From contig JAIUOK010000020.1 of assembly GCA_020161245.1 (NCBI GenBank), positions 4,325 through 68,324 on the forward strand: a DNA stretch of 64,000 nucleotides. The letters run 5' to 3'. Source of the stretch: Actinomycetota bacterium (GTDB lineage Bacteria; Actinomycetota; Actinomycetes; S36-B12; CAIYMF01). Below are positions 24,688 through 41,806 of this stretch, piece after piece. The notes beneath the pieces were generated by a model, which ran no database searches, was not told the DNA's origin, and saw only the letters and a program-made list of their open reading frames with translations. The number at the start of each line of letters is the position of its first letter. Position 1 is the first letter of the stretch. A program made the position numbers and the translations under genes.

Positions 24688-24697
24688 CCGCAGCTGC

Positions 24698-25408: not shown

Positions 25409-26055
25409 AGCGCGGCCTCGAGCGACCGCACGATCCGCCACGACCACAGCGCCCCCAGGGCCTCGAGCACGATGCCCGACGCCAGCACGACGGCGCCGGG
25501 AGGCGACCCCAGCAGCCAGGCGAGCGGGTCGGCGCCGAGCGCGGCACCGAGCAGCAGGCCCACGGCCGGGAGCGCGGCGAGCACGAGCGCGGTGGCGCGC
25601 GGCTCGGCCAGGCCCGTGCGCAGCTCGCGCCGCACCCGCTCGTCCTCGCGCGCGGCGTCGGCCAGGGCGGTCAACGAGGCCGCCAGCCCGGCACCCGACC
25701 CGGACGCGACCTCCCAGCAGGCGGCGGCTGCCAGGAGCAGGTCGCCCGCGCCGGGTGCCCGCAGCGCCGCTGCCACGTCGCCGCCTGCTGCTGCGGCGGC
25801 AGCAGCCACCACCGGGTCGGGGGCCCTGTCGAGCTGCGCCGCCGCGGCCACGACGGCCGACAGCGGATCGCGGCCGGCGCGCGTCTCGGCGGCCAGCGCC
25901 TCGACCCACTCGAGTGCCGCACGGCGGTGCACCTCCGCGCCGACGGGCCGGGCCGGAAGACGCAGCGCCGGGGCCTGCGGCAGCGCGCGTCCCGGCAGCA
26001 TCACCAGCACGAGCACGGCAGCAGCGACGCCGGCCAGCCACATCGCGCCGGTCAT
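25405..26055 (-). CDS. tadB: Tad inner-membrane platform protein TadB
   Basis: SG.GLA..L..L, L...RATA.VL..LP, GA.PL..L; ATGA overlap with tadA. Confidence 0.82.
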   Translation of the reverse strand: MTGAMWLAGVAAAVLVLVMLPGRALPQAPALRLPARPVGAEVHRRAALEWVEALAAETRAGRDPLSAVVAAAAQLDRAPDPVVAAAAAAAGGDVAAALRAPGAGDLLLAAAACWEVASGSGAGLAASLTALADAAREDERVRRELRTGLAEPRATALVLAALPAVGLLLGAALGADPLAWLLGSPPGAVVLASGIVLEALGALWSWRIVRSLEAAL

Positions 26056-27203
26056 GGCGCCGCGTCGCCGAGCCGCTCGCGCAGCCGCGCGAGGCCGGGT
26101 CCCTCGACGACGCCGGCCCCGGAGCGCACCAGCGCGTCGTCGAGCACCGTCAGTCCGTCGGCCCGGCGGGCCACCGACAGCGAGCGCCAGCGGCGCACCC
26201 CGTCGCGGCCGCGGTCGAGATGCACGACCACGTCGAGGCCGGACGCCAGCTGGGCATGGGCGGCGGCCCGGTCGAGCCCTCCGGCGAGGGCCAGCGCCTC
26301 GATGCGCGCCGGCACGTCGGCCGCGCTGTTGGCGTGCACGGTGGTCATCCCGCCCTCGTGGCCGGTGTTGAACGCGGCCAGCATGTCGACGACCTCGGCG
26401 CCTCTCACCTCGCCGACGACGACGCGGTCCGGCCGCATCCGCAGCGACTGGCGCACCAGGTCGCGCAGGGTGATCGCCCCTGCCCCCTCGATGTTGGGCG
26501 GCCGGGCCTCCAGCCGGACGACGTGCGGATGGTCCGGCACGAGCTCGGCCGAGTCCTCCACCACGACGATGCGGTCGCGGGGGTCGCAGCGCGCCAGGAG
26601 CGCAGACGTCCAGGTCGTCTTGCCGGTGCCGGTGCCTCCGCTGACGACCAGCGTGAGCCGCTCTGCCACGACGGCGTCGAGCCACGGGAGCACCGGCCCC
26701 GGCACGGCCCCCGCAGCCACGAGGCCCTCGAGGTCGAAGCTGCGCCGGCGGGGCACGCGCAGCGACAGCGCCGTGCCGCTGAGCGCGACCGGCGCCAGGA
26801 CCGCATGCAGGCGGACGCCGGACGGGAGGCGGCCGTCGACGTAGGGGACGGCGTCGTCGAGGCGCCGGCCGCACGCCGAGGCCAGGCGCTGCGCGAGCCG
26901 GCGCACAGCGGCGTCGTCGGCGAACCGGACGTCGACGCGCTCGGCGCCGCTGCCACGGTCGACCCACACCTCGTCCGGTGCGGTGACGAGGACGTCGGTG
27001 ACCTCGGGGTCGGCCACCAGGGGCTCGAGCGGGCCCGCGCCGGCCATCTCGGCGCGCAGCCGCTCGGCCTCGGCGAGCAGCGCATCCGGGGCCAGGAGCG
27101 CGCCGTCGTCGCGGAGCGCCCGGGCGACATCGGCCGCGGTGGGCGCGAGCCCGCCGGCCAGCAGCCTCGAGCGCACCCGGTCGACGACGTCGGGGCCGCT
27201 CAT
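26052..27203 (-). CDS. tadA: Tad pilus assembly ATPase TadA/CpaF
   Basis: SGGTGTGKTT Walker A, VVEDSAEL, LRMRPDRVVVGEVRG, NTGHEG..T.HAN. Confidence 0.93.
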   Translation of the reverse strand: MSGPDVVDRVRSRLLAGGLAPTAADVARALRDDGALLAPDALLAEAERLRAEMAGAGPLEPLVADPEVTDVLVTAPDEVWVDRGSGAERVDVRFADDAAVRRLAQRLASACGRRLDDAVPYVDGRLPSGVRLHAVLAPVALSGTALSLRVPRRRSFDLEGLVAAGAVPGPVLPWLDAVVAERLTLVVSGGTGTGKTTWTSALLARCDPRDRIVVVEDSAELVPDHPHVVRLEARPPNIEGAGAITLRDLVRQSLRMRPDRVVVGEVRGAEVVDMLAAFNTGHEGGMTTVHANSAADVPARIEALALAGGLDRAAAHAQLASGLDVVVHLDRGRDGVRRWRSLSVARRADGLTVLDDALVRSGAGVVEGPGLARLRERLGDAAP

Positions 27204-28228
27204 CCCACGACCAGGCGGGCGGCCAGCCGGTCGCACACCCTGGCCAGGCGGGTCCGCGAGAGGCCGGGAGGGTCGCCGCGGTCGAGTGCGGCGACCAGGC
27301 GGGAGTCGTGCGGCAGCTCGGCCGCGACCGGCAGGCCGAGCCACTGCTCGAGCGCCTCGCCGTCGAGCGAGGCCCCTGGCAGGCGCCGCACCACCAGTTC
27401 GAGCGGCGCTCCGTCGAGGCGCGAGGCGAGGCGGCGCGCCGACGTCGCGCCGCGCACGTCGCCGACCGCCACCAGCAGCACCACGTCGCAGACGGGGACG
27501 GCGGCGTCGAGGATCTCTGCCCGGCCGCGCGGGAGGTCGACCACGACGAGCCCGAAGCCGCTGCGCGCGGCGCCGGCCACGGCGCCGACCGCCGCCGGGC
27601 CGGGTCCGGCGAGGTCGGCGCGCGACGACGCCAGCACGTGCACGCCGGAGGCGAGCGGCAGCGCCTGCCGTAGCGTGGCGGGGTCGACCCCCGCCCCTGA
27701 GGCGCCGAGCTCGGGCCAGCGGGCGCCCGGCTCCTCCTCCGCGCCGAGGACGAGGTCGGCGCCGGGGCCGTCGGGGTCGGCGTCCACGAGCAGCACCGGG
27801 CCGCGTCGGGCCGCGGCTACGCTGAGGCCGGCCGCGAGCACGCTGGCGCCCGCTCCCCCGCTGCCGCCGACGACCCCGACGACCGGAGCCGCCGTCGCGC
27901 CGGGCGCGGGCCGCGACAGCCGGGCGAGGAGCAGGCCCTCCTCGTCGGGCAGCCGCACCACGGCCTCGGCGCCGAGCGCGAGCACCTGCGACCACGGCAC
28001 GTCGTCGGTGCCGGTGGTCACCACCACCACGTCGGGCCGGCGTCCGAGCCCGGCGTCCAGGCAGGCATGGACGGCGGAGTCGCACACGAGCACGTCGTCG
28101 GCTCCGCGCCAGCGCGAGCGCGCCTCGCGCGCGGTGCCCACCACCTCCACCTCGCGGCCCGCTGCCGCTGCCGCACGCAGCACGAGAGGTGTCGTCTCGG
28201 GGTCGTCGCCCACCAGCACGGTCGTCAC
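27200..28228 (-). CDS. ssd: Septum site-determining protein Ssd (CpaE/TadZ-like)
   Basis: VGGSGGAGAS deviant Walker A, LVDADP.G, VVVDLPR; first gene of the tad operon. Confidence 0.85.
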   Translation of the reverse strand: MTTVLVGDDPETTPLVLRAAAAAGREVEVVGTAREARSRWRGADDVLVCDSAVHACLDAGLGRRPDVVVVTTGTDDVPWSQVLALGAEAVVRLPDEEGLLLARLSRPAPGATAAPVVGVVGGSGGAGASVLAAGLSVAAARRGPVLLVDADPDGPGADLVLGAEEEPGARWPELGASGAGVDPATLRQALPLASGVHVLASSRADLAGPGPAAVGAVAGAARSGFGLVVVDLPRGRAEILDAAVPVCDVVLLVAVGDVRGATSARRLASRLDGAPLELVVRRLPGASLDGEALEQWLGLPVAAELPHDSRLVAALDRGDPPGLSRTRLARVCDRLAARLVVG

Positions 28229-28281
28229 GCCGCCGACCGTCGGCCCCGGCACCCACCGCGGGGACGGCCGGGAGCGCGGCC

Positions 28282-28316
28282 CTGTGGACGACGCGCGAGG
28301 ACGGGCGGCTGTGGAC
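28282..28316 (-). promoter_or_regulatory. Paired GTCCACAG motifs upstream of ssd-tadABC
   Basis: CTGTGGAC at 28282-89 and 28309-16 on +, 27 bp apart. Confidence 0.45.
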
Positions 28317-28360
28317 GGAGCCCGGCGGTCGGCGTCGCGGGCGCCGCCTACGATCGGGGC

Positions 28361-29170
28361 ATGACGCGCAGTGCCGCCTTCTTCGACCTCGACAAGACGA
28401 TCCTCGCGAAGTCGAGCTCGCTGGCGTTCGCGCGGCCGTTCTACAAGGGCGGGCTGCTCGGGCGGGCCGACGTCCTCAAGAGCGCCTACGCGCAGTTCAC
28501 CTACGTGGCCTCCGGCGCCGACCACGACCAGCTCGAGTACATGCGCAAGTACATGTCGGCGCTGGTCACGGGCTGGGACGTCGAGAGCGTGAAGCGCATC
28601 GTGTCCGAGACCCTCGACGACATCGTCGACCCGATGGTCTACGAGGAGGCGGTCGACCTCATCGCGCACCACAAGGAGGAGGGCCGCGACGTCATCATCA
28701 TCAGCTCGTCGGGCACCGAGGTGGTCGAGCCGATCGGCGAGCGCCTCGGCGTCGACCGCGCGATCGGCACGCAGATCGCGATCGACGACGAGGGCCGCTA
28801 CACCGGCGAGATCGTGTTCTACGCCTACGGGCAGGGCAAGGCCGACGCGATGGTCGCCCTCGCCGAGGAGAACGGCTACGACCTCGCCGAGTGCTACGCC
28901 TACAGCGACTCGATGACCGACCTGCCCATGCTCGACGTCGTCGGCCACCCGGTCGCGGTCAACCCCGACGCGCCACTGCGCAAGGTGGCGGTCGAGCGCG
29001 AGTGGCCGATCCTCGACTTCGCCCGGCCCGTGGCGATGCCGACCATGCGCCAGCGGCTCACCGAGCTCAACAACGAGCGCAACCGCCGCACGGCGCTGCG
29101 CGTCGGCGCCGCGACCGTGGCGCTCGGTATCGCCTGGTACGCGGCCCGGCGCCGCGGCTCGTCGCTCTAG
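28361..29170 (+). CDS. HAD-IB family hydrolase (Rv3661-like)
   Basis: FFDLDKT, SSS, GKA, AYSDS.TD.PML..VG.P..VNPD; TACGAT 6 nt before ATG. Confidence 0.92.
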   Translation: MTRSAAFFDLDKTILAKSSSLAFARPFYKGGLLGRADVLKSAYAQFTYVASGADHDQLEYMRKYMSALVTGWDVESVKRIVSETLDDIVDPMVYEEAVDLIAHHKEEGRDVIIISSSGTEVVEPIGERLGVDRAIGTQIAIDDEGRYTGEIVFYAYGQGKADAMVALAEENGYDLAECYAYSDSMTDLPMLDVVGHPVAVNPDAPLRKVAVEREWPILDFARPVAMPTMRQRLTELNNERNRRTALRVGAATVALGIAWYAARRRGSSL

Positions 29171-29308: not shown

Positions 29309-30802
29309 GTGGCCGAGCCGTCCGACGTGCGCGCGCGCCGCCGCGCGGCGGACGCCCACGGCGCCTGGCACGGCGACCCGCTCGACGGCCGGCTCGACCT
29401 CGACCGCCTCGACGACCCGCTCGACCCCTACGGCAGCGAGCCCCTCGACCTCGACGTCGTCGGCGACGACAGCCCGCTCCTCGCCGAGCGCCTGCGCACC
29501 TGGATGGAGGGACGCGGGGTCCTCGTGTGGCTGCGGACCCACCGGCCGGTGGTGGCGGTCGTCGTCGCACTGGCGGCGCTCGGCCTCGTGGCGGCGGGAG
29601 GCTGGTGGCTGGCCCGGCCCGCCTACCTCGCCGACGAGGCGCGCGTCGAGGTGACGACCAGCGGCCAGGAGCCGGCCCGCCTCATCGTCGATCCGGCCAC
29701 CGGCCACATCACCGGCATCACCCAGCTCGTCCTGCTGTCGTCGGCGGAGACGCCGACGGTCACGGTCGATGCGCTCGGCGTCGTCGGCCCCGGACTGTCG
29801 CGGCCCACCGCGCGCATCCCGTCGTCGGTCGCGGGCGCGCCGACCACCGGCGCAGTGGCCGCCGACGTCTCGTGCGACCGGCCCGAGGAGACCGACGCCG
29901 TCGTGACGTCGCGCGCGGCGGACTACCGCGTGCGCGTGCAGCGCACCGACTCGGCCACCGGCGAGCAGCGGATCGACACCGTGCCGCTCGAGGGGGCCGA
30001 GGAGTGGCTGCGCGACGTGCGACGCGCGTGCGTGCAGATCGCCGCCGACCGCGACCTCGAGGTGCGGGCCGTCGACGCCGCGCAGGTCGAGGGCTCGGTG
30101 GCCGCCGACATCCGGATGCTGGTGCGCAACAGCGCCGACCGGCCCTGGCGCTCGGTACGCGTGTCGACGCTGGGCGCGCCCACCGTCGTCGCCGCGACTC
30201 CGGACATCGATATCCCCGCCGGCTCCGAGGAGTGGGTGACCGTACGGCTGTGGCCCGACGACTGCAGCGACCCCGTGCGCCCGCTCGCGCAGGGAGTGCC
30301 GCTGCGCGCCGCGCTGGAGGACGGCATCGCCGTCACCGAGTCGCGCGCCCCCACGTTCTACCTGCCGCTGACCAACGGGCTCGACACGGTGGCGGATGCC
30401 CTGCGCACCACCTGCACCGCCGAGCCGCCGACGGCGACGATCACCAAGGCCCGTGTCTCGGGGTCGTCGATCCAGGACGGCTCCGGCACCATCGACATCT
30501 GGATCGACCTGGCGGTGCCGTCGGGCGGGGTGGTCGAGGTGCAGCAGCCGCTGGCCGACAGGGCAGGCGTGGTGACGCCGTTCGAGGACGTCGTGCCGGT
30601 CGGCGCCGACGGCATCGCGCAGGTGCGCGTGCAGTGGGAGGTGCCGGGCTGCTTCGCGATGCTGCAGGCCGGCCCGCCGGTGCTCAGCGTGCGGGTCGCG
30701 TCGGACCTGCGCCGCCCCTACCGCCTGCCGCTCACGGGCGAGTCGATGCGCACCAACCTGGCCCGGCTGTGCGGGACCACCGCCGGCAGCGTCGTCGCCT
30801 GA
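29309..30802 (+). CDS. Array paralog 1: single-pass membrane protein with 6-Cys ectodomain
   Basis: DGRLDLD, TM near aa 80-100, GVVGPGL, six Cys; AGGAG SD. Confidence 0.85.
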   Translation: MAEPSDVRARRRAADAHGAWHGDPLDGRLDLDRLDDPLDPYGSEPLDLDVVGDDSPLLAERLRTWMEGRGVLVWLRTHRPVVAVVVALAALGLVAAGGWWLARPAYLADEARVEVTTSGQEPARLIVDPATGHITGITQLVLLSSAETPTVTVDALGVVGPGLSRPTARIPSSVAGAPTTGAVAADVSCDRPEETDAVVTSRAADYRVRVQRTDSATGEQRIDTVPLEGAEEWLRDVRRACVQIAADRDLEVRAVDAAQVEGSVAADIRMLVRNSADRPWRSVRVSTLGAPTVVAATPDIDIPAGSEEWVTVRLWPDDCSDPVRPLAQGVPLRAALEDGIAVTESRAPTFYLPLTNGLDTVADALRTTCTAEPPTATITKARVSGSSIQDGSGTIDIWIDLAVPSGGVVEVQQPLADRAGVVTPFEDVVPVGADGIAQVRVQWEVPGCFAMLQAGPPVLSVRVASDLRRPYRLPLTGESMRTNLARLCGTTAGSVVA

Positions 30803-30852
30803 CCGGTCCGCCTCCCCTCGCGCTCGGACCCGGGTCGGCCTACCGTCGGCGC

Positions 30853-30888
30853 ATGGCGGTTCCGGAGGTCGCGGGGCCGAGCCGATGA
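30853..30888 (+). CDS. 11-codon upstream ORF (MAVPEVAGPSR) overlapping the paralog 2 start
   Basis: TACCGT 6 nt before ATG 30853; stop overlaps the next ATG (ATGA). Confidence 0.35.
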   Translation: MAVPEVAGPSR

Positions 30889-32321
30889 CGCCGGACGACG
30901 GGCGCCTCGAGCTCGACGACGACGGCCGCGTCCTCGACGCGGCCGGACCCGTGCGCGCTCTCGATCTGCACGACCCCGATGCTGCCGACGATCTGGCGAC
31001 CAGCGGAGTGCAGCGCTGGGTCGACTCCACCGCACGCCCCTTCCTGCAGCGCCGCCGGCGCCCGCTGGCCGTCGCGGCGGCCGTCGCCGTCGCAGCGGCG
31101 GGGGCCGGTCTCTGGGCCGCGACCCGCCCTCCCTACGTGCCACCCCCGCTGCCCGTCTCCCTCGCATCGGCGTCGAGCCCGGTCGTCGACGACGCAGGGA
31201 GGCTGACCTGGTCGCTCGCCGTGCAGCCGCTCACCTCGCCGGATCCCGCCGTCCTCAGCGGCCTCGTCGGGCCCGGGCTGTTCGACGGCGCCGTGACGCA
31301 GAGCGGTGCGACGGCGGTCGCCGCTGCGACGGTCGACTGCACGGATCCGGCCCTGCCGTCCGCCGCTGCTGGCGCCTACTCCGTGACGGGCCGTGCGGGC
31401 GAGGTGGAAGGGGCGCTCCCCACCCCGCCGGCGGCATGGCCGCGCACCGGGCTGGCCCGGGTGCTGGCCGACTGGTGCATGTCGCAGTCGGCCACAACGG
31501 CTGTCGAGGTGGCGCTCAGCAGCGTGACACCTCTGCCCGGGACGACGCTGGCCGATGTGGGGCTCGATGTGCGCAACGCGTCCCCGCTCCCGCTCATCAT
31601 CGCGACCCGGCGCACGGCCTCCGGCTCCATCGCGGTCGACCGGTCCCCGGCTCTCGCACTCGCGCCGGGAGGGACGGGCCGGCTGACCACCCGGCTCGAC
31701 GTGCACGACTGCTCGGTCGCCCCGGCGCTGACCCCGCTCGGCGCCCTGCCCAACCCCTCGGCGGAGGACTCCGGCGCCCCTGGCGTCGCGCTGGCGCTCA
31801 GCTTCCGCGACGCCGCGCGCACGGCGTCGTTCCCCGTGCTCGGGGGCGAGCGCATCGCGTCGTCCCTGGGCCCGGCCGTCTGCGACGGCACGGCGCCGCC
31901 CGAGGTGTCTGTGTCCGATGTGAGGGCTGCCCGCGCCGGCAGCGGCTGGACGGCCGAGGCCATCCTGCGCGTCCGCACGACGGGTATCGGCATCGGGATC
32001 GCGGAGGTGGGGTTCGCCGGGCCGCCGGCGGGAGAGGGCTCCCGGGTCGAGGTCAGCACCGGCCTCGACCGGGGCTGGGCGGCCGAGCCCACCTCGCTGG
32101 AAGGCGGTGCCGGCCTCCTCCCGAGCCTGTATGTGTCGCCGAGCTGCGACGAGGTGGCGGGCATGTCGCCGGCGCCGCTGCCCGTGCGCGTGACGATGCC
32201 CGACCGCACGGTCGTCCCGTTCCGTGTTCTCGTCGACGATGTGCGGGTTCTGCGCGCGGCGGCCCAGGCATGCGGCACCGACGTCGACCCCGCCCGGGCG
32301 CAGGCCCTCGGCTGGCGCTGA
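30885..32321 (+). CDS. Array paralog 2
   Basis: DDGRLELD, TM, GLVGPGL, six Cys. Confidence 0.85.
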   Translation: MTPDDGRLELDDDGRVLDAAGPVRALDLHDPDAADDLATSGVQRWVDSTARPFLQRRRRPLAVAAAVAVAAAGAGLWAATRPPYVPPPLPVSLASASSPVVDDAGRLTWSLAVQPLTSPDPAVLSGLVGPGLFDGAVTQSGATAVAAATVDCTDPALPSAAAGAYSVTGRAGEVEGALPTPPAAWPRTGLARVLADWCMSQSATTAVEVALSSVTPLPGTTLADVGLDVRNASPLPLIIATRRTASGSIAVDRSPALALAPGGTGRLTTRLDVHDCSVAPALTPLGALPNPSAEDSGAPGVALALSFRDAARTASFPVLGGERIASSLGPAVCDGTAPPEVSVSDVRAARAGSGWTAEAILRVRTTGIGIGIAEVGFAGPPAGEGSRVEVSTGLDRGWAAEPTSLEGGAGLLPSLYVSPSCDEVAGMSPAPLPVRVTMPDRTVVPFRVLVDDVRVLRAAAQACGTDVDPARAQALGWR

Positions 32322-32337
32322 GCCGGGGACGGCCGGC

Positions 32338-33711
32338 ATGGGCGGCAGCGGCGACGGACGGCTCGAGCTCGACGAGCTCGGGCAGGCGGTGGAGTCGGCG
32401 ACCGAGCTCGACGTCGTCGGCGAGGACCATCCCGACGATCCGACGTGGGGCGAGCGGTTCGCCGGGTCGCGGGCCGGGCGCTGGTGGGCGGCCCACCCGT
32501 GGGTGCGCCGGTCGGCCCTCGGCATCGCCGTGGCGGCCGTGATCGGCCTCGCGCTGTCGTGGACGGGCCAGGCGCCGCCGGACGACCTCGAGGTGGTGGC
32601 GACCGTCGAGTCCGACGGTCGCCAGGTGGGCACGGACCTCGTCGGCGGCACGGTGCAGGCAGGCTTCGTCGTGACCGGCGTCCGCCCCGGCGACGACGTC
32701 ACCGTGAAGGCCGTGGTGGGGCCGGGCCTGCGCTCGGCGACGTCGCGCGATCTCGGTGGCGGCCGTGTGCTGGTGCAGGCCGCGCTCGACTGCTCGGAGG
32801 CCGACGCCCTCGATGCCCCGGCCGACAGGTACGGCCTGCGGGTGTCGCGCACCGACCAGTGGGGCCGCACCGTCGTGGAGTCGCGGCCGCTGCCCGAGGG
32901 CGCGGACTGGTCGGGTGCGGTGCACGAGGCCTGCTGGGCCACCACCGGCGAGCAGGCGCTGTCGGTCGACGAGGTCGAGGTCGTGGTGGGCCCGGCGTAC
33001 GCGATGGTGCGGCTGTCGATCGCCATCACCAGCACTCTGCCGGCCGACGCGCTCGTGCAGGCGCTGCCCGTCGACGACGGGGAGGTCGCCGTCGTCCTCG
33101 TCGACTCCGCCAGCCTCGCGGCGGGCGGCAGCGTCGTTCTCGACGTGCCTCTGCGCGTGCGGTCGTGCGACAGCCCGCAGGTGCCGCGCTGGGCATCCAC
33201 GGACGATGTCAGCGGCGGCTACTCCGCGCTCGAGCCCGGGCTGCAGCTCGATGTCACGCTGCCCGGCAGCGGGGAGAGCCGCCTCACCGCCATCCGCTTC
33301 GACGACGCCCAGGCGCGGGCGATCCAGGAGGGCCTCGACCAGGTGTGCGACGGCGTCCCGCGCACGACGATCTCGCTGGTCGACGTCGGCCGCGCGCAGC
33401 TGTCGGGCGCCGTGGTGCTCATGCCCGTCGTGCTCGATGTGCGCTCCGACGGCCTGGCGCGACGCCTCCTCGTCGAGTCCGAGGACCTGTTCGGCGAGGC
33501 GATCCCGAAGCCCGTCGGCCGCGGCGGCAGGGTCGAGGGCACCTGGGCGTTCTTCTGCCAGGAGTCGGTGTCGCCGATGACGGTGTCGCTGCAGGTGAAC
33601 GCCGACGGCCGCGACTACCCGTGGCGGTGGGCCTCGCAGGATCCTCGCCTCGTGCGCGAGGTGCAGCGGGTGTGCCCGGGCGCGCAGGCCCCGACCACGT
33701 TCGTGTCCTGA
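32338..33711 (+). CDS. Array paralog 3
   Basis: Start re-called at ATG 32338; DGRLELDELG, PTWGER, TM, AVVGPGL, TDQWGR, six Cys. Confidence 0.85.
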   Translation: MGGSGDGRLELDELGQAVESATELDVVGEDHPDDPTWGERFAGSRAGRWWAAHPWVRRSALGIAVAAVIGLALSWTGQAPPDDLEVVATVESDGRQVGTDLVGGTVQAGFVVTGVRPGDDVTVKAVVGPGLRSATSRDLGGGRVLVQAALDCSEADALDAPADRYGLRVSRTDQWGRTVVESRPLPEGADWSGAVHEACWATTGEQALSVDEVEVVVGPAYAMVRLSIAITSTLPADALVQALPVDDGEVAVVLVDSASLAAGGSVVLDVPLRVRSCDSPQVPRWASTDDVSGGYSALEPGLQLDVTLPGSGESRLTAIRFDDAQARAIQEGLDQVCDGVPRTTISLVDVGRAQLSGAVVLMPVVLDVRSDGLARRLLVESEDLFGEAIPKPVGRGGRVEGTWAFFCQESVSPMTVSLQVNADGRDYPWRWASQDPRLVREVQRVCPGAQAPTTFVS

Positions 33712-33753
33712 TCGTGCTCGGACGCGTACCCGCCGGCTCGTACGCTGCCAGGC

Positions 33754-35232
33754 ATGGGGGACCGCGACGGCCGGCTCGAGCTCGATGAGCTCGGCGGCGT
33801 CATCGACACGGCGGAGCGGCTCGACGCCGTCCCGGCCCCGGACCTGCTCGAGGGCGGCGAGGACCACCCGACGTGGGGCGAGCGCGCTCGCGGATCGCGC
33901 GCGTTCGCCTGGGCCGCAGCGCATCGCGGCTGGATGACGGCGGGCGCCGTCGCGGCCGTGGCGGCGGTGGTCGTCCCCGCCGTCGTCGTGGCCAACCGGC
34001 CGCCCGACCCCGACCCCACCATCGACGTCAGTGTCATGTCGCTCACCGACGAGGCCAACGGCAACCCCGGGGTCACCGGCTACGGCGGCGGCCTGTTCGG
34101 GTCGGTCTACCAGGTCACGTCGCTGGAGGAGGGCTGGAGCGGCCTGCGCATCGACGGGATCAGCGGTCCGGGGATCCGCACCTCGCGCTCGGAGCAGGTC
34201 CCGTCGCCCACGTCGGACCTGCCGCGGTTCCGGGTGGCGGCGGCTGCCGGCTGCGACTCCCCGGCGTACGACGGCTTCTTCCGCGGCGACTACGTGCTCC
34301 ACCTGAGCGCGACCGACGCCTACGGACGACCGGCGACCGCGACGGTCGACGCACCACTGCCGGCGTACGGGGGATGGAGCGAGACGGTCGGCCAGTGGTG
34401 CTGGGAGAAGGTGCCGGCGAGCCTGGGGATCGACGTGCAGTCCGTTCGCGGCGACCGCGCCCTGGCGGAGATCGAGGTCGCCGTCGAGGTCGCGAACCCG
34501 AACCCGTTCTCGCTGTGGGTGTCCAACGCCTACGCCGACAGCGCCTGGCTCGCGCAGAGCCCCGCCGACGTGCCGCGGCCCGTCGAAGCCCGCTCCACCG
34601 CCGTGCTGCCGATTCGCCTGGCTGTGACCGACTGCCGCGCCGGCGACGACGGCGTCTGGGTCGAGGTGCTGCAGGGCGACGCGTCGACCGTGCGCCGGCC
34701 CGGCATCGGCAGCTACATCACGACGTCGGAGCAGCGCTTCGGCGCCCAGCTGCCGGTGCTCTTCGAGCCGGGTGCGGTGGCAGAGCTCGACGCTGCGCGT
34801 CGGACGGTCTGCCGGGGCGTGCCGGCGATCGGCCTCCAGTCGCTCGACGCCGTCCCGGCGACAGCGCCCGACCCGGCCACCGGCCTCTACCCCCTTGCGC
34901 TGAGGATCCGGCTGGGCTCGGTCACCGGCACCGAGCGGCTCACCGCGGACGTCGTCGACGACACGCTGGGCTGGCGCGGCACGACGCCGACGACCACCGA
35001 GGTCGTGGCCGACGGCTCCGTGCAGGACGTGGTCTGGGACGTCGACTGCGGCTACGTGCCGTCGCCGCCCGTGCTGCGCCTGCGCTCCGAGTCCGGCGCC
35101 CCGCGGCCGCAGCTGCTCGACCTCGGCATCGAGCCGCTGCGCTCGGCCCTCGTGCAGACCTGCCCCGGCTTCCTGGACGGCGACCTCGTGACCATGGGCT
35201 GGGGATCTGCGGCCGACCGCGCGAGCGGCTGA
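33754..35232 (+). CDS. Array paralog 4
   Basis: DGRLELDELGGVI, PTWGER, TM, GISGPGI, TDAYGR, six Cys. Confidence 0.87.
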   Translation: MGDRDGRLELDELGGVIDTAERLDAVPAPDLLEGGEDHPTWGERARGSRAFAWAAAHRGWMTAGAVAAVAAVVVPAVVVANRPPDPDPTIDVSVMSLTDEANGNPGVTGYGGGLFGSVYQVTSLEEGWSGLRIDGISGPGIRTSRSEQVPSPTSDLPRFRVAAAAGCDSPAYDGFFRGDYVLHLSATDAYGRPATATVDAPLPAYGGWSETVGQWCWEKVPASLGIDVQSVRGDRALAEIEVAVEVANPNPFSLWVSNAYADSAWLAQSPADVPRPVEARSTAVLPIRLAVTDCRAGDDGVWVEVLQGDASTVRRPGIGSYITTSEQRFGAQLPVLFEPGAVAELDAARRTVCRGVPAIGLQSLDAVPATAPDPATGLYPLALRIRLGSVTGTERLTADVVDDTLGWRGTTPTTTEVVADGSVQDVVWDVDCGYVPSPPVLRLRSESGAPRPQLLDLGIEPLRSALVQTCPGFLDGDLVTMGWGSAADRASG

Positions 35233-35296
35233 CCAGAGCACGCGGTCGCCCCGGATCGGCGCGTCAGGATCGGAGCCTCCGCCTACGCTGCGGGGC

Positions 35297-36745
35297 ATGG
35301 GGGACGACGGACGGCTCGAGCTCGACGAGCTCGGCGGCGTGATCGAGACGGCGCAGCGCCTCGACGCCGCAGCGCCTGACGGCGACCTGCTCGCCGGCGG
35401 CGACGACGCACCGTCCTGGGCCGAGCGCATCCGGGCCAGCGGCGTGTACTTCTGGGCCGAGCGCCACCGCCGGTGGCTCATGGCCGGTGCCGCGGTGGTG
35501 GCTGTCGGCGTCGCCGTGCCAGGCGTCGCCGCCCACAACCGGCTGCCCGACGTCGACCCGACCACCGGCATCGTGGCGCTCGCGGTCGCCAACGATCTCG
35601 ACGGTGCTCCCGCTCCTGCGGTCGACGGCGGCCTGGCGACGGCGGTGTACCAGCTCGAGCAGCACGAGCGCGGGTGGACCGATCCGCAGGTCATCGGCGT
35701 CAGCGGGCCGGGCATCCGGAGCACCGAGGTCGCCGCGGTCCCGGTGGGCAGCGGCATCTTCCCGAAGTTCCGGGTGACCGCCGCGGTCGGCTGCGACCTT
35801 CCGTTCGGCCGCCCGGCCGCTGCACAGTACGTCCTGCACATCAGCGCCACCGACGCCTACGGCCGGGTGGTGCGCGAGGACGTGCCTGCGCCGTCGATGG
35901 AGTACTCCGGGTGGTACGACGCGCTGGGCCAGGCCTGCTGGCAGCGCGTGCCCGACGAGCTCGACGTCGAGATCGGGCGCATCAGCGCGGACCGCGACCG
36001 CGGGCGCATCACCGTCGAGGCGGCCGTGACGACCCCGGCAGCGTACGACGTGTCGGTCACGAGCGCGTGGGCCGACGCCCCGTGGCTGGTGCCGGACATC
36101 GGCGCCGCGGCGCGGGTGCCGGCCGGCGGCACCGCCGACGTCGCGCTGCCGTTCCAGGTGAGCGACTGCCGCACCCCGTTCACCGCGCCGAGGGCCCAGC
36201 AGATCCGCGGCGACGAGGTCGCCATGATCACCGGGCTGTCGGCCTACGTGACGACGGCCGACCAGCGCTTCGGCACGCAGCTCGCCCTGCCGCTCGACAG
36301 CGCGCAGACCGACGCGCTGCAGCGGGCCCACGACGAGGTGTGCCAGGGCATGCCGGCGCTGCGCATCGCCGACGTCGTGGCGAGCACGGGCGAGCCGACC
36401 CCGGACGGCTCCGGTGCCTGGGACATCCCGGTGACCCTGCGGCTCGGCACCTCGACGCCCCGACCGCTGCGCGTGTCGATCGGCGACTCTGGCCTCGATC
36501 CGATCGTCGGCATGGAGAACGCCGCGGTCGTCGGTGCCGACGGGACGGTCACCGCGCGATGGCGCGTCGAGTGCGGCTATGCGCCGTCGCCGCCGGCGCT
36601 GTGGGTGCAGTCGATGTCGAGCGCCCCCACGCCTCAGCGGCTCCGGCTGCCGCTCGGGCCGCTGCGCAGGGCGCTCGTCGCGACGTGCCCGGGCATCCCC
36701 GCGAACGACCTCGGCCTCAACGGCTGGAGCGGCGGCGGGGCCTGA
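35297..36745 (+). CDS. Array paralog 5 (closest to paralog 4)
   Basis: DGRLELDELGGVI, PSWAER, TM, GVSGPGI, TDAYGR, QRFG.QL, CGY.PSPP, TCPG. Confidence 0.87.
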   Translation: MGDDGRLELDELGGVIETAQRLDAAAPDGDLLAGGDDAPSWAERIRASGVYFWAERHRRWLMAGAAVVAVGVAVPGVAAHNRLPDVDPTTGIVALAVANDLDGAPAPAVDGGLATAVYQLEQHERGWTDPQVIGVSGPGIRSTEVAAVPVGSGIFPKFRVTAAVGCDLPFGRPAAAQYVLHISATDAYGRVVREDVPAPSMEYSGWYDALGQACWQRVPDELDVEIGRISADRDRGRITVEAAVTTPAAYDVSVTSAWADAPWLVPDIGAAARVPAGGTADVALPFQVSDCRTPFTAPRAQQIRGDEVAMITGLSAYVTTADQRFGTQLALPLDSAQTDALQRAHDEVCQGMPALRIADVVASTGEPTPDGSGAWDIPVTLRLGTSTPRPLRVSIGDSGLDPIVGMENAAVVGADGTVTARWRVECGYAPSPPALWVQSMSSAPTPQRLRLPLGPLRRALVATCPGIPANDLGLNGWSGGGA

Positions 36746-36799
36746 GGGGATCCGCCGGACCGACGCATCCGCGCGAGTCCAAGATCACCGGAAAGTCAA

Positions 36800-37097
36800 G
36801 GGGCACAGGGGCTTCCGGTTGCCTGCGGATCGGAGTACACAAGAACCACGGGAGCCGGCCGAAGGGGCCGACCACTGCACGGAAGGCGACCGGAGAAGTC
36901 CGGGCCCGACGAGCGACGGGCCCACACGAGTACTGAGCACGGCACCACCTCGGGATACCCACGCTGCGGTCACCCTCGTAACGGGCGTCACGGCCGGGAG
37001 AGCTCGCAGAAGCACCCGACCGGACGGAACTCACAGCGCACTGATCGCCCGGGAGCCGTGCCCGCGACGGCGCCCCTGCTAGCGGGGCGCCGTTCGC
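36800..37097 (+). ncRNA. Probable Ms1/MTS2823/scr3559-type RNA (boundaries approximate)
   Basis: About 300-nt A-enriched non-coding stretch ending in a strong hairpin, directly convergent on the Fic-like gene and downstream of the HAD gene; this is the known Ms1 syntenic position. Confidence 0.6.
37064..37097. terminator. Hairpin shared by the ncRNA and the convergent Fic-like gene
   Basis: ACGGCGCCCC / GGGGCGCCGT stem with 7-nt loop. Confidence 0.7.
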
Positions 37098-37127
37098 TGT
37101 GCGGGCCGCTCCGGCACGGCACCGGCG

Positions 37128-37928
37128 TCAGGCCAGATCCGCGACGATCCGCTGCGACTCCTGCGCCCCCACCCGCACCGTCTCCGCGTGCAGCACGATC
37201 CACTGCGCCACGCCCTCCGGCGTGCCCGTCGCGTAGGCCTTGAGCGCATCGGCGTAGCGCGAGCGGCCCGCGGCGTAGAGACCGGCCTCGGGGACGGTCA
37301 GCCCGTCGGGGTCGACCCCGCGCGCGGCCAGTACGAGCCGCGTGGTGGCACGGGCCACCAGTCCGCTCCCCCAGGCGAACGGGCGCAGCACCGCCACCTC
37401 GGCGTGGGCGATGGCCGCGACCACCAGGGCCGGCGCGGCCGACTGCGCCGTGAGGACGCCGGCGAGCGCAGCCATCCGGCGCGACGCCTCGGCGTGGTCC
37501 GGGACAGGTCCGAGGCGCAGCGGGTCGTCGGCCCGCTCGTCCGCGCGGGGCCGCCCGCGCTGGTCGTCGTCGACGAAGCCCGTGGAGGCCACGGCATGCA
37601 GCGTCGAGAGCGCCTGCAGCGGGGCCCGTCCCAGCACGTCGACCTGCCGCGGGATCTCCGCCTGGACCGCGAGAGCCGACGCGACCACGCGGCCCATCGG
37701 CGACCCGTCCAGCGCGTCGCCGGACACCAGCGCGTCGGGCCGCACCTCGGCGCCGTCGATGGCTGCCGACGCCCAGCCCCCGCGCAGCCGCGAGGCCGCG
37801 ACCACCTCCCCCGCGCGGGCCCGCACGCCGCGGTCCCACAGCACGGCGTCGACGGCCGACCGTGCGGCGTCGACGGCCTCCTGGACGCCGGGCAGGCCGG
37901 CGAGCGGCTCGAGCACGTCCTGGGGCAT
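37128..37928 (-). CDS. Fic-like protein (Rv3662c/SCO3559-like)
   Basis: Degenerate Fic motif HAE....RPF..GSGLVAR; TAGCGT 6 nt before ATG. Confidence 0.75.
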   Translation of the reverse strand: MPQDVLEPLAGLPGVQEAVDAARSAVDAVLWDRGVRARAGEVVAASRLRGGWASAAIDGAEVRPDALVSGDALDGSPMGRVVASALAVQAEIPRQVDVLGRAPLQALSTLHAVASTGFVDDDQRGRPRADERADDPLRLGPVPDHAEASRRMAALAGVLTAQSAAPALVVAAIAHAEVAVLRPFAWGSGLVARATTRLVLAARGVDPDGLTVPEAGLYAAGRSRYADALKAYATGTPEGVAQWIVLHAETVRVGAQESQRIVADLA

Positions 37929-37995: not shown

Positions 37996-39141
37996 ATGAC
38001 CCCCGCGCTCGTCGCCGCGCTCGTGGTCGCGGTCGTGGCCGTGGCGCTCGTCGCCGTGCGCCTGCTGCGCCGCCGCGACCTCGGCACCGAGGCCGACCGG
38101 GCCACGTTCGAGACGCTGCACCGAGCGTCGCTCGCGGCGCCCGCGCTGCGCGAGGGCCTCACCGAGGACGCCGTCGGCCGGGCGGCCAAGCACGTGCGCG
38201 CCCTGCTCGGGTCGGCGGGCGTCGTGCTCACGAGCACCGAACGCGTGCTGGGCGGCGACGGCGCCGGCACCGACGTCCTCGTGCTCGACGACGTCGCCGA
38301 GGTCCTCGAGAACGGTCACGCGGTCGTGGTGCCGCAGGTCGGCCCACTGGGCCACCAGGCCATCGTGGCGCCGCTGGTGGTCGACGACCTCGTCGTCGGC
38401 ACGCTCGTGTGCGTCGCCGACCACGCGACCGCCAACCTCGTGCGGGCCACCACCGAGGTCGCGCGCTGGGTGTCGAGCCAGCTCGAGCTCGCCGAGCTCG
38501 ACGCCTCGCGCACGCGGCTCGCCGAGGCCGAGGTGCGGGCCCTGCGGGCGCAGATCTCGCCCCACTTCATCTACAACGCGCTCAACGCCATCGCGTCCTA
38601 CGTGCGCACCGACCCGGAGCACGCGCGCGAGCTGCTGCTCGAGTTCGCCGACTTCACCCGCTACTCCTTCCGGCGGCACGGCGAGTTCACGACGCTCGCC
38701 GAGGAGCTGCGCTCGATCGACCGCTACCTCACCCTCGAGCGCGCCCGGTTCGGCGAGCGGCTGCAGGTCACCGTCCGCGTGGCGCCCGAGGTGCTGCCCG
38801 TGACAGTCCCGTACCTGTGCCTTCAGCCGCTGGTGGAGAACGCCGTGCGCCACGGGCTCGAGCGCAAGGCCGGCCCCGGACGCATCACGATCCTGGCCGA
38901 GGACGACGGCGCCGAGTGCGCCATCTCGGTCGAGGACGACGGCGTCGGCGCCGACCCTGAGCAGATCCGCCGCGCGATGACCGGTGAGGGCGACGCCGAC
39001 TCCATCGGCGTGGGCAACGTCGACGAGCGCCTCCGCCAGGTGTTCGGCGACGAGTACGGTCTGGTCGTCGAGACCGCCCCCGGCCTGGGCACCAAGGTGT
39101 CCATGCGCGTCCCGAAGTACGCCCCAGGAGTCCACGTATGA
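37996..39141 (+). CDS. LytS/YehU-family sensor histidine kinase
   Basis: LRAQISPHFIYNALN, LQPLVENAVRHG, DDGVG, G.G..NV..RL. Confidence 0.92.
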   Translation: MTPALVAALVVAVVAVALVAVRLLRRRDLGTEADRATFETLHRASLAAPALREGLTEDAVGRAAKHVRALLGSAGVVLTSTERVLGGDGAGTDVLVLDDVAEVLENGHAVVVPQVGPLGHQAIVAPLVVDDLVVGTLVCVADHATANLVRATTEVARWVSSQLELAELDASRTRLAEAEVRALRAQISPHFIYNALNAIASYVRTDPEHARELLLEFADFTRYSFRRHGEFTTLAEELRSIDRYLTLERARFGERLQVTVRVAPEVLPVTVPYLCLQPLVENAVRHGLERKAGPGRITILAEDDGAECAISVEDDGVGADPEQIRRAMTGEGDADSIGVGNVDERLRQVFGDEYGLVVETAPGLGTKVSMRVPKYAPGVHV

Positions 39142-39905
39142 GCGAGCCCGCGGCCACCGCCGGCCTGCGCGTGCTGGCCGTCGACGACGAGGCGCCGGCC
39201 CGCGCAGAGCTGTCGTACCTGCTCGGCCGCGACGAGCGCGTCGGCCACGTCGACACGGCGGGCGACGGCGCGGAGGCCCTGCGCCTCATCGAGTCCGGCG
39301 TCTACGACGCCCTGTTCGTCGACATCCGCATGCCCGGCCTCGACGGGCTCGACCTCGCCCGCATCCTGCGCCGCTTCACCGAGCCGCCCGCGGTCGTGTT
39401 CGTCTCGGCGTACGACCAGCACGCGGTCGAGGCGTTCGACCTGCGCGCGGTCGACTACGTGATGAAGCCCGTCCGCGAGGAGCGGCTGGCCGAGGCCGTC
39501 GGCCGCGTGATCGAGGGCCGCGCGCGCTCCGCCCCGGCGGCAGCGCCGCCGGCCCCGGCCGACGACGACGAGACGATCGCCGTCGAGCTCGGCGGCGTGA
39601 CGCGCTTCGTGAAGCGCTCGGACGTCCGGTACGTCGAGGCGCACGGCGACTACGCGCGCCTCGTCACCGACGACGGGCGGCACCTCGTGCGGGTGTCGCT
39701 GGCGCTGCTCGAGGAGCAGTGGTCGTCGGCCGGGTTCGTGAGGATCCACCGCCGCTGGCTGGTGCCGCTGCGGGCCATCGACGAGGTGCGCAACGACGGC
39801 GGGCGGATGAGCGTGCGCGTGGGCGACGCCGTCCTCCAGGTGTCGCGCCGCCACACCCGCGAGCTGCGCGACACCCTCGTGCGCAGCGCGCGCCCGGGGC
39901 GCTGA
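39138..39905 (+). CDS. LytTR-family response regulator
   Basis: AVDDE, FVDIRMP, KP; C-terminal FVRIHR..LV, VSRR. Confidence 0.93.
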   Translation: MSEPAATAGLRVLAVDDEAPARAELSYLLGRDERVGHVDTAGDGAEALRLIESGVYDALFVDIRMPGLDGLDLARILRRFTEPPAVVFVSAYDQHAVEAFDLRAVDYVMKPVREERLAEAVGRVIEGRARSAPAAAPPAPADDDETIAVELGGVTRFVKRSDVRYVEAHGDYARLVTDDGRHLVRVSLALLEEQWSSAGFVRIHRRWLVPLRAIDEVRNDGGRMSVRVGDAVLQVSRRHTRELRDTLVRSARPGR

Positions 39906-39908
39906 GGC

Positions 39909-40286
39909 GTGGACGAGAAGCCGCAGCGCCGGGTCGCGATCACGCATCCGCGCACCGCTGCGGCCCGCTCGGCGGCCAAGCGCGGCGTCCGCCGCGACGT
40001 CAACGACAGCACGGCGCTGGGCGTGACGATGATCCGCTCGCTGCGGCGCGCGCAGCTGCGGCTCGCGGTGATCGTCGGCGTCGGGCTGCTCGTCGTCCTC
40101 GGCGGGATCCCCCTGCTGTTCCTGCTCGACCCTCCGCTGCGCGAGGCGCGCGTGGGCGGGCTCGCCGTCGGCTGGATCCTGCTCGGCGTGCTGGTCTTCC
40201 CGGCCATCTGGCTCACCGCGTGGTGGTACGTACGGGCGGCGGAGCGCAACGAGACGCAGTTCGTCGACCTGGTCGAGAGGTCGTGA
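39909..40286 (+). CDS. Small membrane protein (DUF485-like symporter partner)
   Basis: Two TM segments, YVR.AERNE motif, abuts the symporter gene. Confidence 0.7.
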   Translation: MDEKPQRRVAITHPRTAAARSAAKRGVRRDVNDSTALGVTMIRSLRRAQLRLAVIVGVGLLVVLGGIPLLFLLDPPLREARVGGLAVGWILLGVLVFPAIWLTAWWYVRAAERNETQFVDLVERS

Positions 40287-40287
40287 C

Positions 40288-41793
40288 GTGACGTCGTGGT
40301 GGCCGCTGCTGGCCATCCTCGGCGTGGTCGGGGCGACGTTCGCGATCGGCCTGTTCGGCGTCCGGGTGTCGCGCACGACGTCGGACTTCCTCGTCGCGTC
40401 CCGGTCGGTCAGCCCCACGCTCAACGCGTCCGCCATCGGCGGCGAGTACCTGTCGGCGGCGTCGTTCCTCGGCATCGCCGGCCTGGTGCTCTCCTACGGC
40501 GTCGACATGCTCTGGTTCCCCGTCGGGTACACCGTCGGCTACCTCGTGCTGCTCATCCTGGTCGCGGCCCCGCTGCGGCGGAGCGGGGCGTACACGCTGC
40601 CCGACTTCGCCGAGATGCGGACGCGCTCGCGCAGGGTGCGGTACGCCTCGTCGATCCTCGTCGTGCTCATCGGCTGGCTCTACCTGCTCCCGCAGCTGCA
40701 GGGTGCCGGCATCACGTTGCGCGCGCTCACCGGCGCCCCCGTCTGGGCCGGCGCCGTCGTGGTGGCCGTCGTCGTCGGGATCACGGTGGCCACTGGCGGG
40801 ATGCGCTCCATCACCGTCGTGCAGGCGTTCCAGTACTGGCTCAAGCTGTTCGCGATCGCGCTGCCCGCCGTGCTGCTGGTGGCGGCGTGGTACCGCGACG
40901 GCACGCCGGTGTTCACCGAGGGTGGCTGGGGCGATCCGCTCTCGGGCTACGGCGAGCGCGAGTACCCGCTCTACACGACGTACTCGATCGTGCTCGCGAC
41001 GTTCCTCGGCACGATGGGCCTGCCGCACGTGCTGGTGCGCTTCTACACCAACCCCGACGGCCGGGCAGCCCGCCGCACCGTCCTCGCGGTGCTCGCTCTG
41101 CTGAGCGTGTTCTACCTGTTCCCGCCGGTGTTCGGCGCTCTCGGCCGCATCTACACGCCCGAGCTCGCGGGCACCGACGCCGCCGACACGGTGGTGCTCG
41201 TGCTGCCCTCCGTGGTGTTCGACGGGTGGCTCGGCGACGCGCTGTCGGCGCTCGTCGCGGCCGGCGCGTTCGCCGCGTTCCTGTCGACCGCGAGCGGGCT
41301 GTGCGTGTCCGTGGCCGGCGTGCTCTCGCAGGACCTGCTGCGCCACGAGGGCCGTCTCGGCGACGGCGTCAGCCGGTTCCGGCTCGGCACGGCCATCGCC
41401 ATCGCCGTGCCCTTCCTGCTCGCTCTGGTGGCCGGTCGCGCCAACCTCGCGCAGACCGTCACGCTCGCGTTCGCGGTGGCGGCGTCGACGTTCTGCCCGC
41501 TGCTCGTGCTGGGCATCTGGTGGCCGCGCCTGACCGAGAAGGGCGCGCTCGCGGGCCTGCTCGTCGGCGGCGGCGCCGCTCTCGCGGCCGTCGTCGCGGT
41601 GCTCGCCGCCGGCCCGTTCACCGGCGTCGTCGGCGCCCTGCTCGGCCAGCCCGCGGCCTGGACCGTCCCGCTCGCCTTCGCCACCAGCGTGCTGGTCTCG
41701 CTGCGCACGGGCGACCGGTCGCAGCGCCTCGTCAGCGACGCCGCCATGGCGCGCCTGCACGGCCCCGAGGAGATCCAGGCCCGTCGCGCCTGA
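40288..41793 (+). CDS. Sodium:solute symporter (cation/acetate symporter family), copy 1
   Basis: GEYLSAASFLG, GTMGLPHVLVRFYT, AASTF.P. Confidence 0.9.
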   Translation: MTSWWPLLAILGVVGATFAIGLFGVRVSRTTSDFLVASRSVSPTLNASAIGGEYLSAASFLGIAGLVLSYGVDMLWFPVGYTVGYLVLLILVAAPLRRSGAYTLPDFAEMRTRSRRVRYASSILVVLIGWLYLLPQLQGAGITLRALTGAPVWAGAVVVAVVVGITVATGGMRSITVVQAFQYWLKLFAIALPAVLLVAAWYRDGTPVFTEGGWGDPLSGYGEREYPLYTTYSIVLATFLGTMGLPHVLVRFYTNPDGRAARRTVLAVLALLSVFYLFPPVFGALGRIYTPELAGTDAADTVVLVLPSVVFDGWLGDALSALVAAGAFAAFLSTASGLCVSVAGVLSQDLLRHEGRLGDGVSRFRLGTAIAIAVPFLLALVAGRANLAQTVTLAFAVAASTFCPLLVLGIWWPRLTEKGALAGLLVGGGAALAAVVAVLAAGPFTGVVGALLGQPAAWTVPLAFATSVLVSLRTGDRSQRLVSDAAMARLHGPEEIQARRA

Positions 41794-41806
41794 GCACCTC
41801 CCGGCG

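Follow-up and report, generated by a model that had tools for sequence, protein, structure and literature searches.

A tandem array of paralogous single-pass membrane proteins with predicted Ig-like modules between a HAD-IB hydrolase gene and an Ms1-like RNA region in Actinomycetota

A stretch of 64,000 nucleotides from an Actinomycetota bacterium (contig JAIUOK010000020.1, positions 4,325 to 68,324 of the forward strand; referred to here as the window) harbors five consecutive open reading frames (ORFs) on the + strand at 29309-36745, which encode proteins of 497, 478, 457, 492 and 482 amino acids (aa). Copy 1 (W1, 29309..30802) is relatively conserved and has a longer N-terminal tail, while copy 2 (W2, 30885..32321) combines a conserved tail with a fast-evolving ectodomain. 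Copy 3 (W3, 32338..33711) is again a conserved copy, whereas copies 4 (W4, 33754..35232) and 5 (W5, 35297..36745) evolve fast. For copy 3 the start was placed at an ATG within a longer ORF opening at 32224, which matches the public gene call, and public gene calls on a 99%-identical contig of a metagenome-assembled genome (MAG) agree with all five ORFs. The window has a G+C content of 72-80% and six-frame ORFs are abundant in it. The G+C content at third codon positions (GC3) was 0.93-0.96 in the four copies that passed the coding filter; copy 2 failed this filter.

Relatedness of the five proteins was analyzed by alignment, pairwise comparison and profile search. A DGRL(E/D)LD motif near the N-terminus, a single hydrophobic helix, a GPG motif and six invariant Cys residues are common to all five. 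In BLASTP comparisons, copies 4 and 5 were 40% identical (E 1e-98); the other pairs were 21-30% identical and some of them barely detectable pairwise, with E-values of 1e-19 to 1e-22 for copy 3 against copies 4 and 5, 2e-9 for copies 1 and 5, 3e-7 for copies 2 and 3 and only ~0.01-0.03 for copies 1 and 2. Since all five proteins scored E 2e-67 to 1e-98 against a family profile from which the window sequences had been left out, the paralogy is not an effect of chance or composition. This confirms that the five genes are paralogs of one family. The first-pass annotation, made from the sequence alone, had described five same-strand paralogs of which only copies 4 and 5 are close, and both parts of this description held.

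Searches of Pfam and NCBIfam with the five proteins gave nothing above noise and reached no curated threshold, and PADLOC yielded no defence family match for them. When 45 diverse family members were compared with Pfam, just three isolated matches were obtained (E 0.003-0.009), and a profile of the 45 sequences found no match among PDB sequences (best E 0.07). The proteins therefore do lack a known family in these databases, as had been noted at first sight. Word-indexed protein searches with copy 4 or with a 9-sequence profile detected only the same five close relatives; the family was revealed by an exhaustive hidden Markov model (HMM) search of 1.84 billion cluster representatives, in which 242 proteins were found at E ≤1e-3 and 88 at E ≤1e-30. 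Most of these are full length (450-530 aa), all named members are annotated as 'hypothetical protein', and the family comprises ~240 clusters when counted at 50% identity.

When one genome of each GTDB species was scanned, 15 loci were identified. The cultured host among them is Longivirga aurantiaca (Sporichthyaceae), and the remainder are MAGs labeled Candidatus Nanopelagicales (most), Actinomycetes, Actinomycetota or Micrococcales. All located members are thus confined to one lineage, consisting of Longivirga and of MAGs mostly assigned to 'Candidatus Nanopelagicales'. The species of the window is frequent in metagenomes from activated sludge, wastewater, landfill, sediment and freshwater. 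In 15 of 15 GTDB species loci, and in four further loci from metagenomes, the genes lie in tandem on one strand at one and the same site, with two to five copies in the GTDB species loci and up to six over all loci; homologs were always found as such arrays, neither scattered as single-copy genes nor belonging to a characterized family. A phage or plasmid origin was considered and rejected, as no relatives were found in IMG/VR, among the INPHARED phages or among the PLSDB plasmids.

To describe the protein architecture, copy 4 was modeled with AlphaFold2 from a 45-sequence alignment (pLDDT 87.4, pTM 0.77). The model consists of a tail (aa 1-57, 33754-33924, +), a transmembrane helix (aa 58-80, 33925-33993, +) and three modules designated D1 (aa 92-222, 34027-34419, +), D2 (aa 223-357, 34420-34824, +) and D3 (aa 358-476, 34825-35181, +). 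Residues 1-36 are predicted to be disordered, and two short helices lie within residues 41-56, which correspond to the W.ER...PW.RRHR stretch. Across the family this conserved acidic tail of ~55 aa reads DGRL-E/D-LD-x-LG, followed by the amphipathic W.ER...PW.RRHR helix. Each of the three modules is modeled as a beta-sandwich closed by an alpha-helix, and a separate model of D1 reached a pLDDT of 90.6. The layout proposed at first, with an acidic tail, a W..R/H stretch, one transmembrane helix, a GPG motif and a beta-rich ectodomain, is borne out by both the alignment and the model.

The six Cys residues are invariant in 45 diverse members, as are positions occupied by Gly and Pro. They are distributed as one pair per module, with one Cys just past a strand and its partner at the end of the next helix, and would form extracytoplasmic disulfides. 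When the modules were compared by hhalign the Cys pairs fell into register (D2-D3 E 1e-5, D1 weaker), suggesting that the modeled layout arose by internal triplication with one disulfide per module. Because the tail lacks Cys, all six being in the ectodomain, and because RRHR precedes the transmembrane helix, we infer a type II single-pass topology with the N-terminus inside and the C-terminus outside. Mean pairwise identity across the family was 45% in the tail, 28% in D1, 23% in D3 and 21% in D2.

The DSSP strand pattern of the models is that of two-sheet beta-sandwich modules in tandem, which places them in the Ig-like fold class, a fold class and not a family. Foldseek searches of PDB and BFVD with the whole copy 4 model gave generic matches alone, of the tandem Ig, FN3, transglutaminase-barrel and myomesin type (TM-score ≤0.2); those in BFVD were FN3/Ig-like phage proteins of a generic kind only. 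The D1 model had no significant neighbor in PDB (best E 4.6e-3, TM-score ≤0.37). As judged from the models, the module is an Ig-like sandwich outside any recognized family, and together with the sequence searches this indicates a family new to the curated databases and without a structural neighbor. The strand motif Y.L.V.RTD..GR of D1 resembles a cadherin-repeat motif, a weak lead (T-cadherin EC1, E 0.07). As Y.L.V.(R/A)TD..GR the motif lies at 34291-34328 in copy 4 and at 35828-35865 in copy 5, and it matches the repeats of a 7223-aa cadherin-like repeat protein (P0147) 22 times. These resemblances hint that D1 may derive from a cadherin-like Ig domain.

In a neighbor-joining tree of 63 members from 19 loci, three deep clades were obtained that track the position in the array. 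Class A comprises the first gene (copy 1), class B the second (copy 2) and class C the third onward (copies 3-5). Class C alone expands, in a lineage-specific manner, to one to four copies, and recent duplication was seen in this class only; close relatives of the window organism have five or six genes in total. The order A-B-C(n) was found in 13 of 16 complete loci, with class A absent from two of the others and class B from one. Since A, B and C are ancient, position-linked clades, the serial duplication proposed in the first-pass annotation fits class C only. From the tree, the three classes appear to be old and non-redundant, or at least long retained.

Two loci of relatives are unusual in their details. 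In a long-read MAG (L010), a class B and a class C copy read as one ORF at 8387-11494 (protein P0168, 1014 aa) with a frameshifted piece at 9793-9933, which reflects either an error of sequencing or a true fusion of the genes. In L011, ~900 bp at 7549-8446 separate the class A and C genes where class B would be expected; the segment gave no family match, and stop codons interrupt the frame that was tried. Possibly it is what remains of a decayed class B gene.

Substitution rates were determined against the nearest sister genome of the window (L004) as Nei-Gojobori omega (dN/dS). The flanking genes were 91-97% identical between the two, with dN of 0.016-0.055 and omega of 0.04-0.11. Within the array, copy 3 (89% identity, omega 0.17; ectodomain 0.08-0.18) and copy 1 (81%, omega 0.30) were the better conserved. 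Copies 2 (56% in this comparison, 53-56% overall; omega 0.47), 4 (56%, omega 0.59) and 5 (52%, omega 0.62) had dN of 0.39-0.42, ~20x that of the flanking genes. Omega in domain-sized windows was 0.2-0.8, with the fast copies 2, 4 and 5 at 0.5-0.8; as none of these windows exceeded 1, positive selection was not demonstrated. In the tail of copy 2, omega was 0.15 with normal dS, and the constraint on the tail therefore acts on the protein and not on the DNA. The cytoplasmic tail is the most constrained part of the protein. A comparison of dN/dS between tail and ectodomain had been proposed at the outset; it bore out the constraint on the tail and brought up no ectodomain window above 1.

Between very close genomes, copy 4 had a dS of 0.29, compared to 0.015-0.09 in its neighbors (4- to ~20-fold), which suggests that the distal copies have received imported alleles or undergone recombination. 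Within the species, contigs from four unrelated metagenomes carried collinear arrays that differed by 0.1-1.3%, while the flanks differed by 0.9-1.8%, and a repeat search of the array gave no signatures of diversity-generating retroelements (DGRs), inversion or cassettes. Hypervariability within the population was therefore rejected, since the array differs no more than its flanks in the four metagenomes. The pattern is one of fast divergence of some ectodomains between species and not of hypervariation at the population level. Of the diversified, variable repertoire that had been proposed, the diversification of copies 2, 4 and 5 between species stands, whereas variability within the species does not.

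The only internal DNA repeats in the array are the 5' boxes that encode the tail. The box for the DGRLELDELG motif at 33765..33829 (+, copy 4) is 91% identical to 35305-35369 in copy 5 (DNA repeat families D1-D3). It recognizably recurs at the 5' end of copies 2, 3 and 5, and a related box marks copy 1. LELDEL is encoded as CTCGAGCTCGACGAGCTC, which is palindromic DNA. A role of the box as a DNA operator site was rejected, as Glu/Asp swaps break the palindrome while the peptide is kept, and dS in the tail is normal. A further DNA repeat (D14) extends over the promoter and the gene start in both copy 4 and copy 5.

In Actinobacteria, a TANNNT hexamer 6-7 nt before the start codon is a signature of leaderless transcripts. 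Such a -10-like hexamer, TACGCT, is located 7 nt upstream of the ATG of copy 4 (33741..33746, +) and of copy 5 (35284..35289, +), each a putative leaderless promoter, and the HAD gene starting at 28361 likewise has TACGCT or TACGAT 6-7 nt before its ATG. In other loci TANNNT was found at the same placement before ~27 of 62 family genes, mostly of class C and some of class B; the chance of each such placement at this G+C content was estimated, not computed, to be well under 1%. Class A genes carry a Shine-Dalgarno-like aggag and not TANNNT, and this is also the case upstream of copy 1. Because of the leaderless-type placement of TANNNT before their start codons, several copies probably have their own promoters, and the motif suggests leaderless mRNAs for them. 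In true metatranscriptomes, short exact contigs within the array genes were detected at low depth (3-4). They are weak evidence that the array is transcribed, and operons could not be delimited from such sparse and noisy contigs.

Directly upstream of the array, a gene at 28361..29170 (+) encodes a HAD-IB type hydrolase with a hydrophobic C-terminal stretch (Pfam PF12710, E 9e-35). Its orthologs are 81-97% identical and adjoin the array upstream wherever the contig extends that far. It is preceded by a gene for a CpaE/TadZ-type ATPase and, beyond this, by T2SSE, T2SSF and DUF4244 genes. Downstream, where the contig reaches, a conserved intergenic region is followed by a convergent Fic-like gene, which in the window encodes 266 aa (37128..37928, -) and forms the downstream boundary. 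This gene matched Pfam Fic at E 3e-4, below the curated cut-off, and PADLOC SoFic at E 3.5e-9. Conservation of 73-92% in every relative makes a housekeeping gene beside Ms1 more probable than one for defence. Past it lie LytS-LytTR, DUF485-SSF and Acs genes. In the window this conserved block (37996-46215, +) comprises a LytS-type histidine kinase, a LytTR regulator, two pairs of DUF485 and SSF (ActP-like) genes and an acetyl-CoA synthetase gene; it looks like a regulon for acetate or monocarboxylate uptake unrelated to the array.

Across Actinobacteria, Ms1 RNA genes were described to have a gene for a HAD-IB hydrolase with a C-terminal transmembrane helix on one side and an 'oxidoreductase/Fic' gene on the other, and CpaE is often in the vicinity (PMC9130861). 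The order tad/CpaE - HAD - Ms1 - Fic/oxidoreductase is a synteny ancestral in Actinobacteria and is present without the array (PMC9130861). In light of this published synteny, the array is an insertion within the ancestral block. The intergenic region between array and Fic-like gene (36746-37127) is strongly conserved in an alignment across 18 loci. It includes a conserved box on its upstream side, GGAAAGTCAAG...GGAGTACAC, and is terminated by a GC-rich hairpin. By position, an Ms1-like RNA gene lies at approximately 36790..37110 (+), with a core at ~36838-37110 and the terminal hairpin at ~37076-37105; it bounds the array and is not part of it. In an activated-sludge metatranscriptome, a contig covering 36858-37070 reached a depth of 193, compared to 3-4 for contigs in the array genes. 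Rfam gave no Ms1 or 6S-like match, neither for the whole window at gathering thresholds nor for the intergenic region at E-value thresholds, and a single-sequence fold of the intergenic RNA was not distinctive (z -1.46). Synteny, conservation and abundance support a tentative assignment of the intergenic element as an Ms1-like RNA, and the array sits between the HAD gene and this element, where it had been placed initially.

Other genes were also found between the array and the Ms1-like region. L010 carries an acyltransferase gene of the AT3+SGNH (OafA/OatA) type at 11692-14136 and L008 a class I methyltransferase gene at 11998-12684. The site thus behaves like a hotspot of gene insertion, and the gene inserted in L010 is of an envelope-modifying type.

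The analysis established a family, its architecture at the level of models, its arrangement as an array, its class structure, its pattern of constraint and its independence from the tad genes, to which we return below. The proteins may have a receptor, adhesin or signaling role. As a tentative explanation, held with a little less confidence than an even call, we propose membrane-anchored envelope proteins with an Ig-like rod, in which classes A, B and C act jointly, the tails share a partner and the ectodomains bind ligands. The three disulfide-stapled Ig-like modules would form a rod of ~12-15 nm that reaches into the wall zone or to the cell surface. The near-identical tails would dock every paralog onto one common cytoplasmic partner, and the ectodomains may serve as binding or scaffold elements for species-specific ligands of the envelope or the exterior. 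Classes A, B and C would work together, while the extra class C copies, several of them with putative leaderless promoters of their own, would add separately expressed variants.

Several observations weigh against this proposal. No annotated homolog points to any function, and a tail-only profile search for other architectures with the N-terminal motif returned short fragments alone and hence no clue to a docking partner. The transmembrane helix itself is poorly conserved (26% identity), and the three loci without class A or class B weaken the idea of an obligate A+B+C complex. The transcript signal in the array is of low depth and could be DNA carry-over. Finally, with omega below 1 everywhere and no excess of variation within the species, the fast divergence could reflect weak constraint and not ligand-driven selection.

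The same divergence could be read as an arms race, in which the array provides a surface repertoire of variable receptors or decoys whose diversification is selected for by phages or competitors. The ~20-fold higher dN in copies 2, 4 and 5, the raised dS of copy 4 between close genomes with the imported alleles it suggests, the varying copy number and the insertion of an AT3-SGNH acyltransferase or a methyltransferase gene at the same site in two relatives would all be in line with it. However, omega did not exceed 1 in any domain-sized window, polymorphism of the array in the four unrelated metagenomes is no greater than that of the flanks, and copies 1 and 3 are well conserved. DGR, inversion and cassette signatures, PADLOC matches and phage or plasmid homologs were likewise not found in the respective searches. 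We regard an arms race as unlikely.

A further alternative is multi-input transmembrane signaling that would operate like RsgI-type anti-sigma factors. One cytoplasmic regulator would be sequestered or activated by the conserved tail, and the external cue that is sensed would differ from ectodomain to ectodomain. RsgI-like sensors have a short N-terminal tail, one transmembrane helix and a variable ectodomain, and the topology of the array proteins matches theirs. A tail that is the most conserved part and nearly identical between paralogs, with ectodomains that differ, fits such a function as well, and so do the putative promoters of some copies. Against it, neither RsgI_N nor any other anti-sigma domain was matched (five proteins in Pfam and NCBIfam, 45 members in Pfam), none of the copies has a sigma factor or regulator gene as a partner, and the LytS/LytTR pair downstream belongs to the conserved DUF485-SSF-Acs block. 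Moreover, the tail is predicted by AlphaFold2 to be disordered. Signaling of this kind is in our view rather improbable. Somewhat less probable again is a new kind of multi-receptor transmembrane system, in which the almost invariant acidic tail (DGRLELDxLG...W.ER...RRHR) would dock paralogs that compete for or jointly control one cytoplasmic factor, while the three ancient ectodomain classes would link distinct signals from the envelope or the exterior with the shape of the cell or its transcriptional state. Candidates for the factor would be the HAD-IB phosphatase, which is membrane-bound and co-oriented, or a partner related to transcription and tied to the neighboring Ms1 locus.

The first-pass annotation had also linked the array to the Tad pilus, and the paralogs might accordingly be Tad/Flp pilus accessory proteins, that is extra envelope components, anchors or adhesins. 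In the window, as in most relatives, a CpaE/TadZ-TadA-TadB-TadC cluster is indeed ~1 kb away from the array. However, the ancestral order of tad/CpaE, HAD, Ms1 and Fic in Actinobacteria exists without the array family (PMC9130861), and the array is on the strand opposite to tad with the HAD gene in between. L009 carries genes for an H+-translocating pyrophosphatase (H+-PPase), a STAS protein, an MrfA-type helicase and the HAD hydrolase followed by the array, with no tad genes there, although in the window these genes flank the tad cluster; compared to 17285-28361 of the window, the ~5.5-kb tad/Flp cluster is absent from L009 (1-6900) between the DEAD/MZB helicase and HAD genes. Obligate linkage to tadZABC is thus not found, and a profile search of relatives, which had been suggested for copy number and linkage, returned arrays of two to six genes that are linked to the Ms1-like region at one site and not obligatorily to tad. 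In L011 and L022, unrelated genes (an ArsR-type regulator, an MFS transporter) lie between tad and HAD. The proteins themselves also do not resemble Tad components: no TadE, pilin or CpaB Pfam domain was found in the five proteins or the 45 members, the transmembrane consensus of 45 sequences has no conserved Glu or prepilin G/xxxxEY site, and the conserved cytoplasmic tail of ~55 aa comes before the transmembrane helix. On grounds of synteny, namely L009 and the ancestral tad-HAD-Ms1 order, the pilus reading was rejected; it is highly improbable, and the adjacency to tad is inherited synteny and not evidence of function. That the ORFs are non-functional, being decaying or spurious in DNA in which 75% G+C makes six-frame ORFs plentiful and for which the evidence of expression is weak, is effectively refuted by the GC3 of 0.93-0.96 in the coding frame of the four filter-passing copies, by ORFs that are intact in 15 species with omega below 1, by invariant Cys, Gly and Pro in 45 members and by confident AlphaFold models.

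The proposed envelope proteins define an unannotated family of ~240 clusters with a modeled architecture and a precise, conserved genomic address, in actinobacteria that are common in activated sludge, sediments and soils. The array is not a new defence or pilus system, and its wider significance is moderate without a demonstrated function. An ancient set of three paralog classes in fixed order and a cytoplasmic peptide that is more conserved than the ectodomain are traits that make it useful for further study, and genetic work is possible in a cultured host, Longivirga aurantiaca CGMCC 4.7317, whose locus (L008) carries A, B and two C copies. In addition, the HAD-Ms1 synteny is split in this lineage by a gene-insertion hotspot, which matters for synteny-based searches for Ms1.

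The kind of protein is a familiar one, single-pass with tandem Ig-like modules and encoded by tandem paralogs, and can be compared with several known systems. Surface adhesins of the Big, cadherin-like, DUF11 or FN3 type likewise consist of a string of beta-sandwich modules, and the Foldseek matches of an array protein included tandem Ig/FN3/transglutaminase-barrel proteins and the SrpA adhesin. Unlike Ig and cadherin adhesins, however, the array proteins have no Pfam Ig-like or cadherin match, and their single modules reach a TM-score of at most 0.37. There are three modules only, each predicted to end in an additional helix held by a Cys pair, and the anchor is an N-terminal transmembrane helix with a conserved cytoplasmic tail instead of an LPXTG motif, a lipobox or an autotransporter. 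RsgI-type anti-sigma sensors share the topology and the combination of a conserved tail with ectodomains that are diversified across paralogs, but the array has neither an RsgI_N domain nor a cognate sigma gene beside the copies, and its tail is a predicted disordered acidic peptide and not a folded domain. The Ig-helix repeats of myomesin (PDB 2y25, Foldseek rank 14) also join an Ig-like domain and a connecting alpha-helix in tandem; myomesin is a eukaryotic muscle protein with a TM-score of ~0.2 and no sequence similarity, and the resemblance is an architectural analogy only. In Actinobacteria, the Mce proteins (MceA-F) are likewise a set of several diverged paralogs, each single-pass and anchored at its N-terminus, whose genes keep a fixed order within one operon. 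They differ from the array proteins in fold, the latter having no MCE (MlaD, PF02470) match, a class content that is not strictly fixed and no YrbE permease or MkB ATPase genes near the array. As an analogy, the Mce proteins nevertheless illustrate how proteins of the classes A, B and C might come together in a single structure of the envelope.

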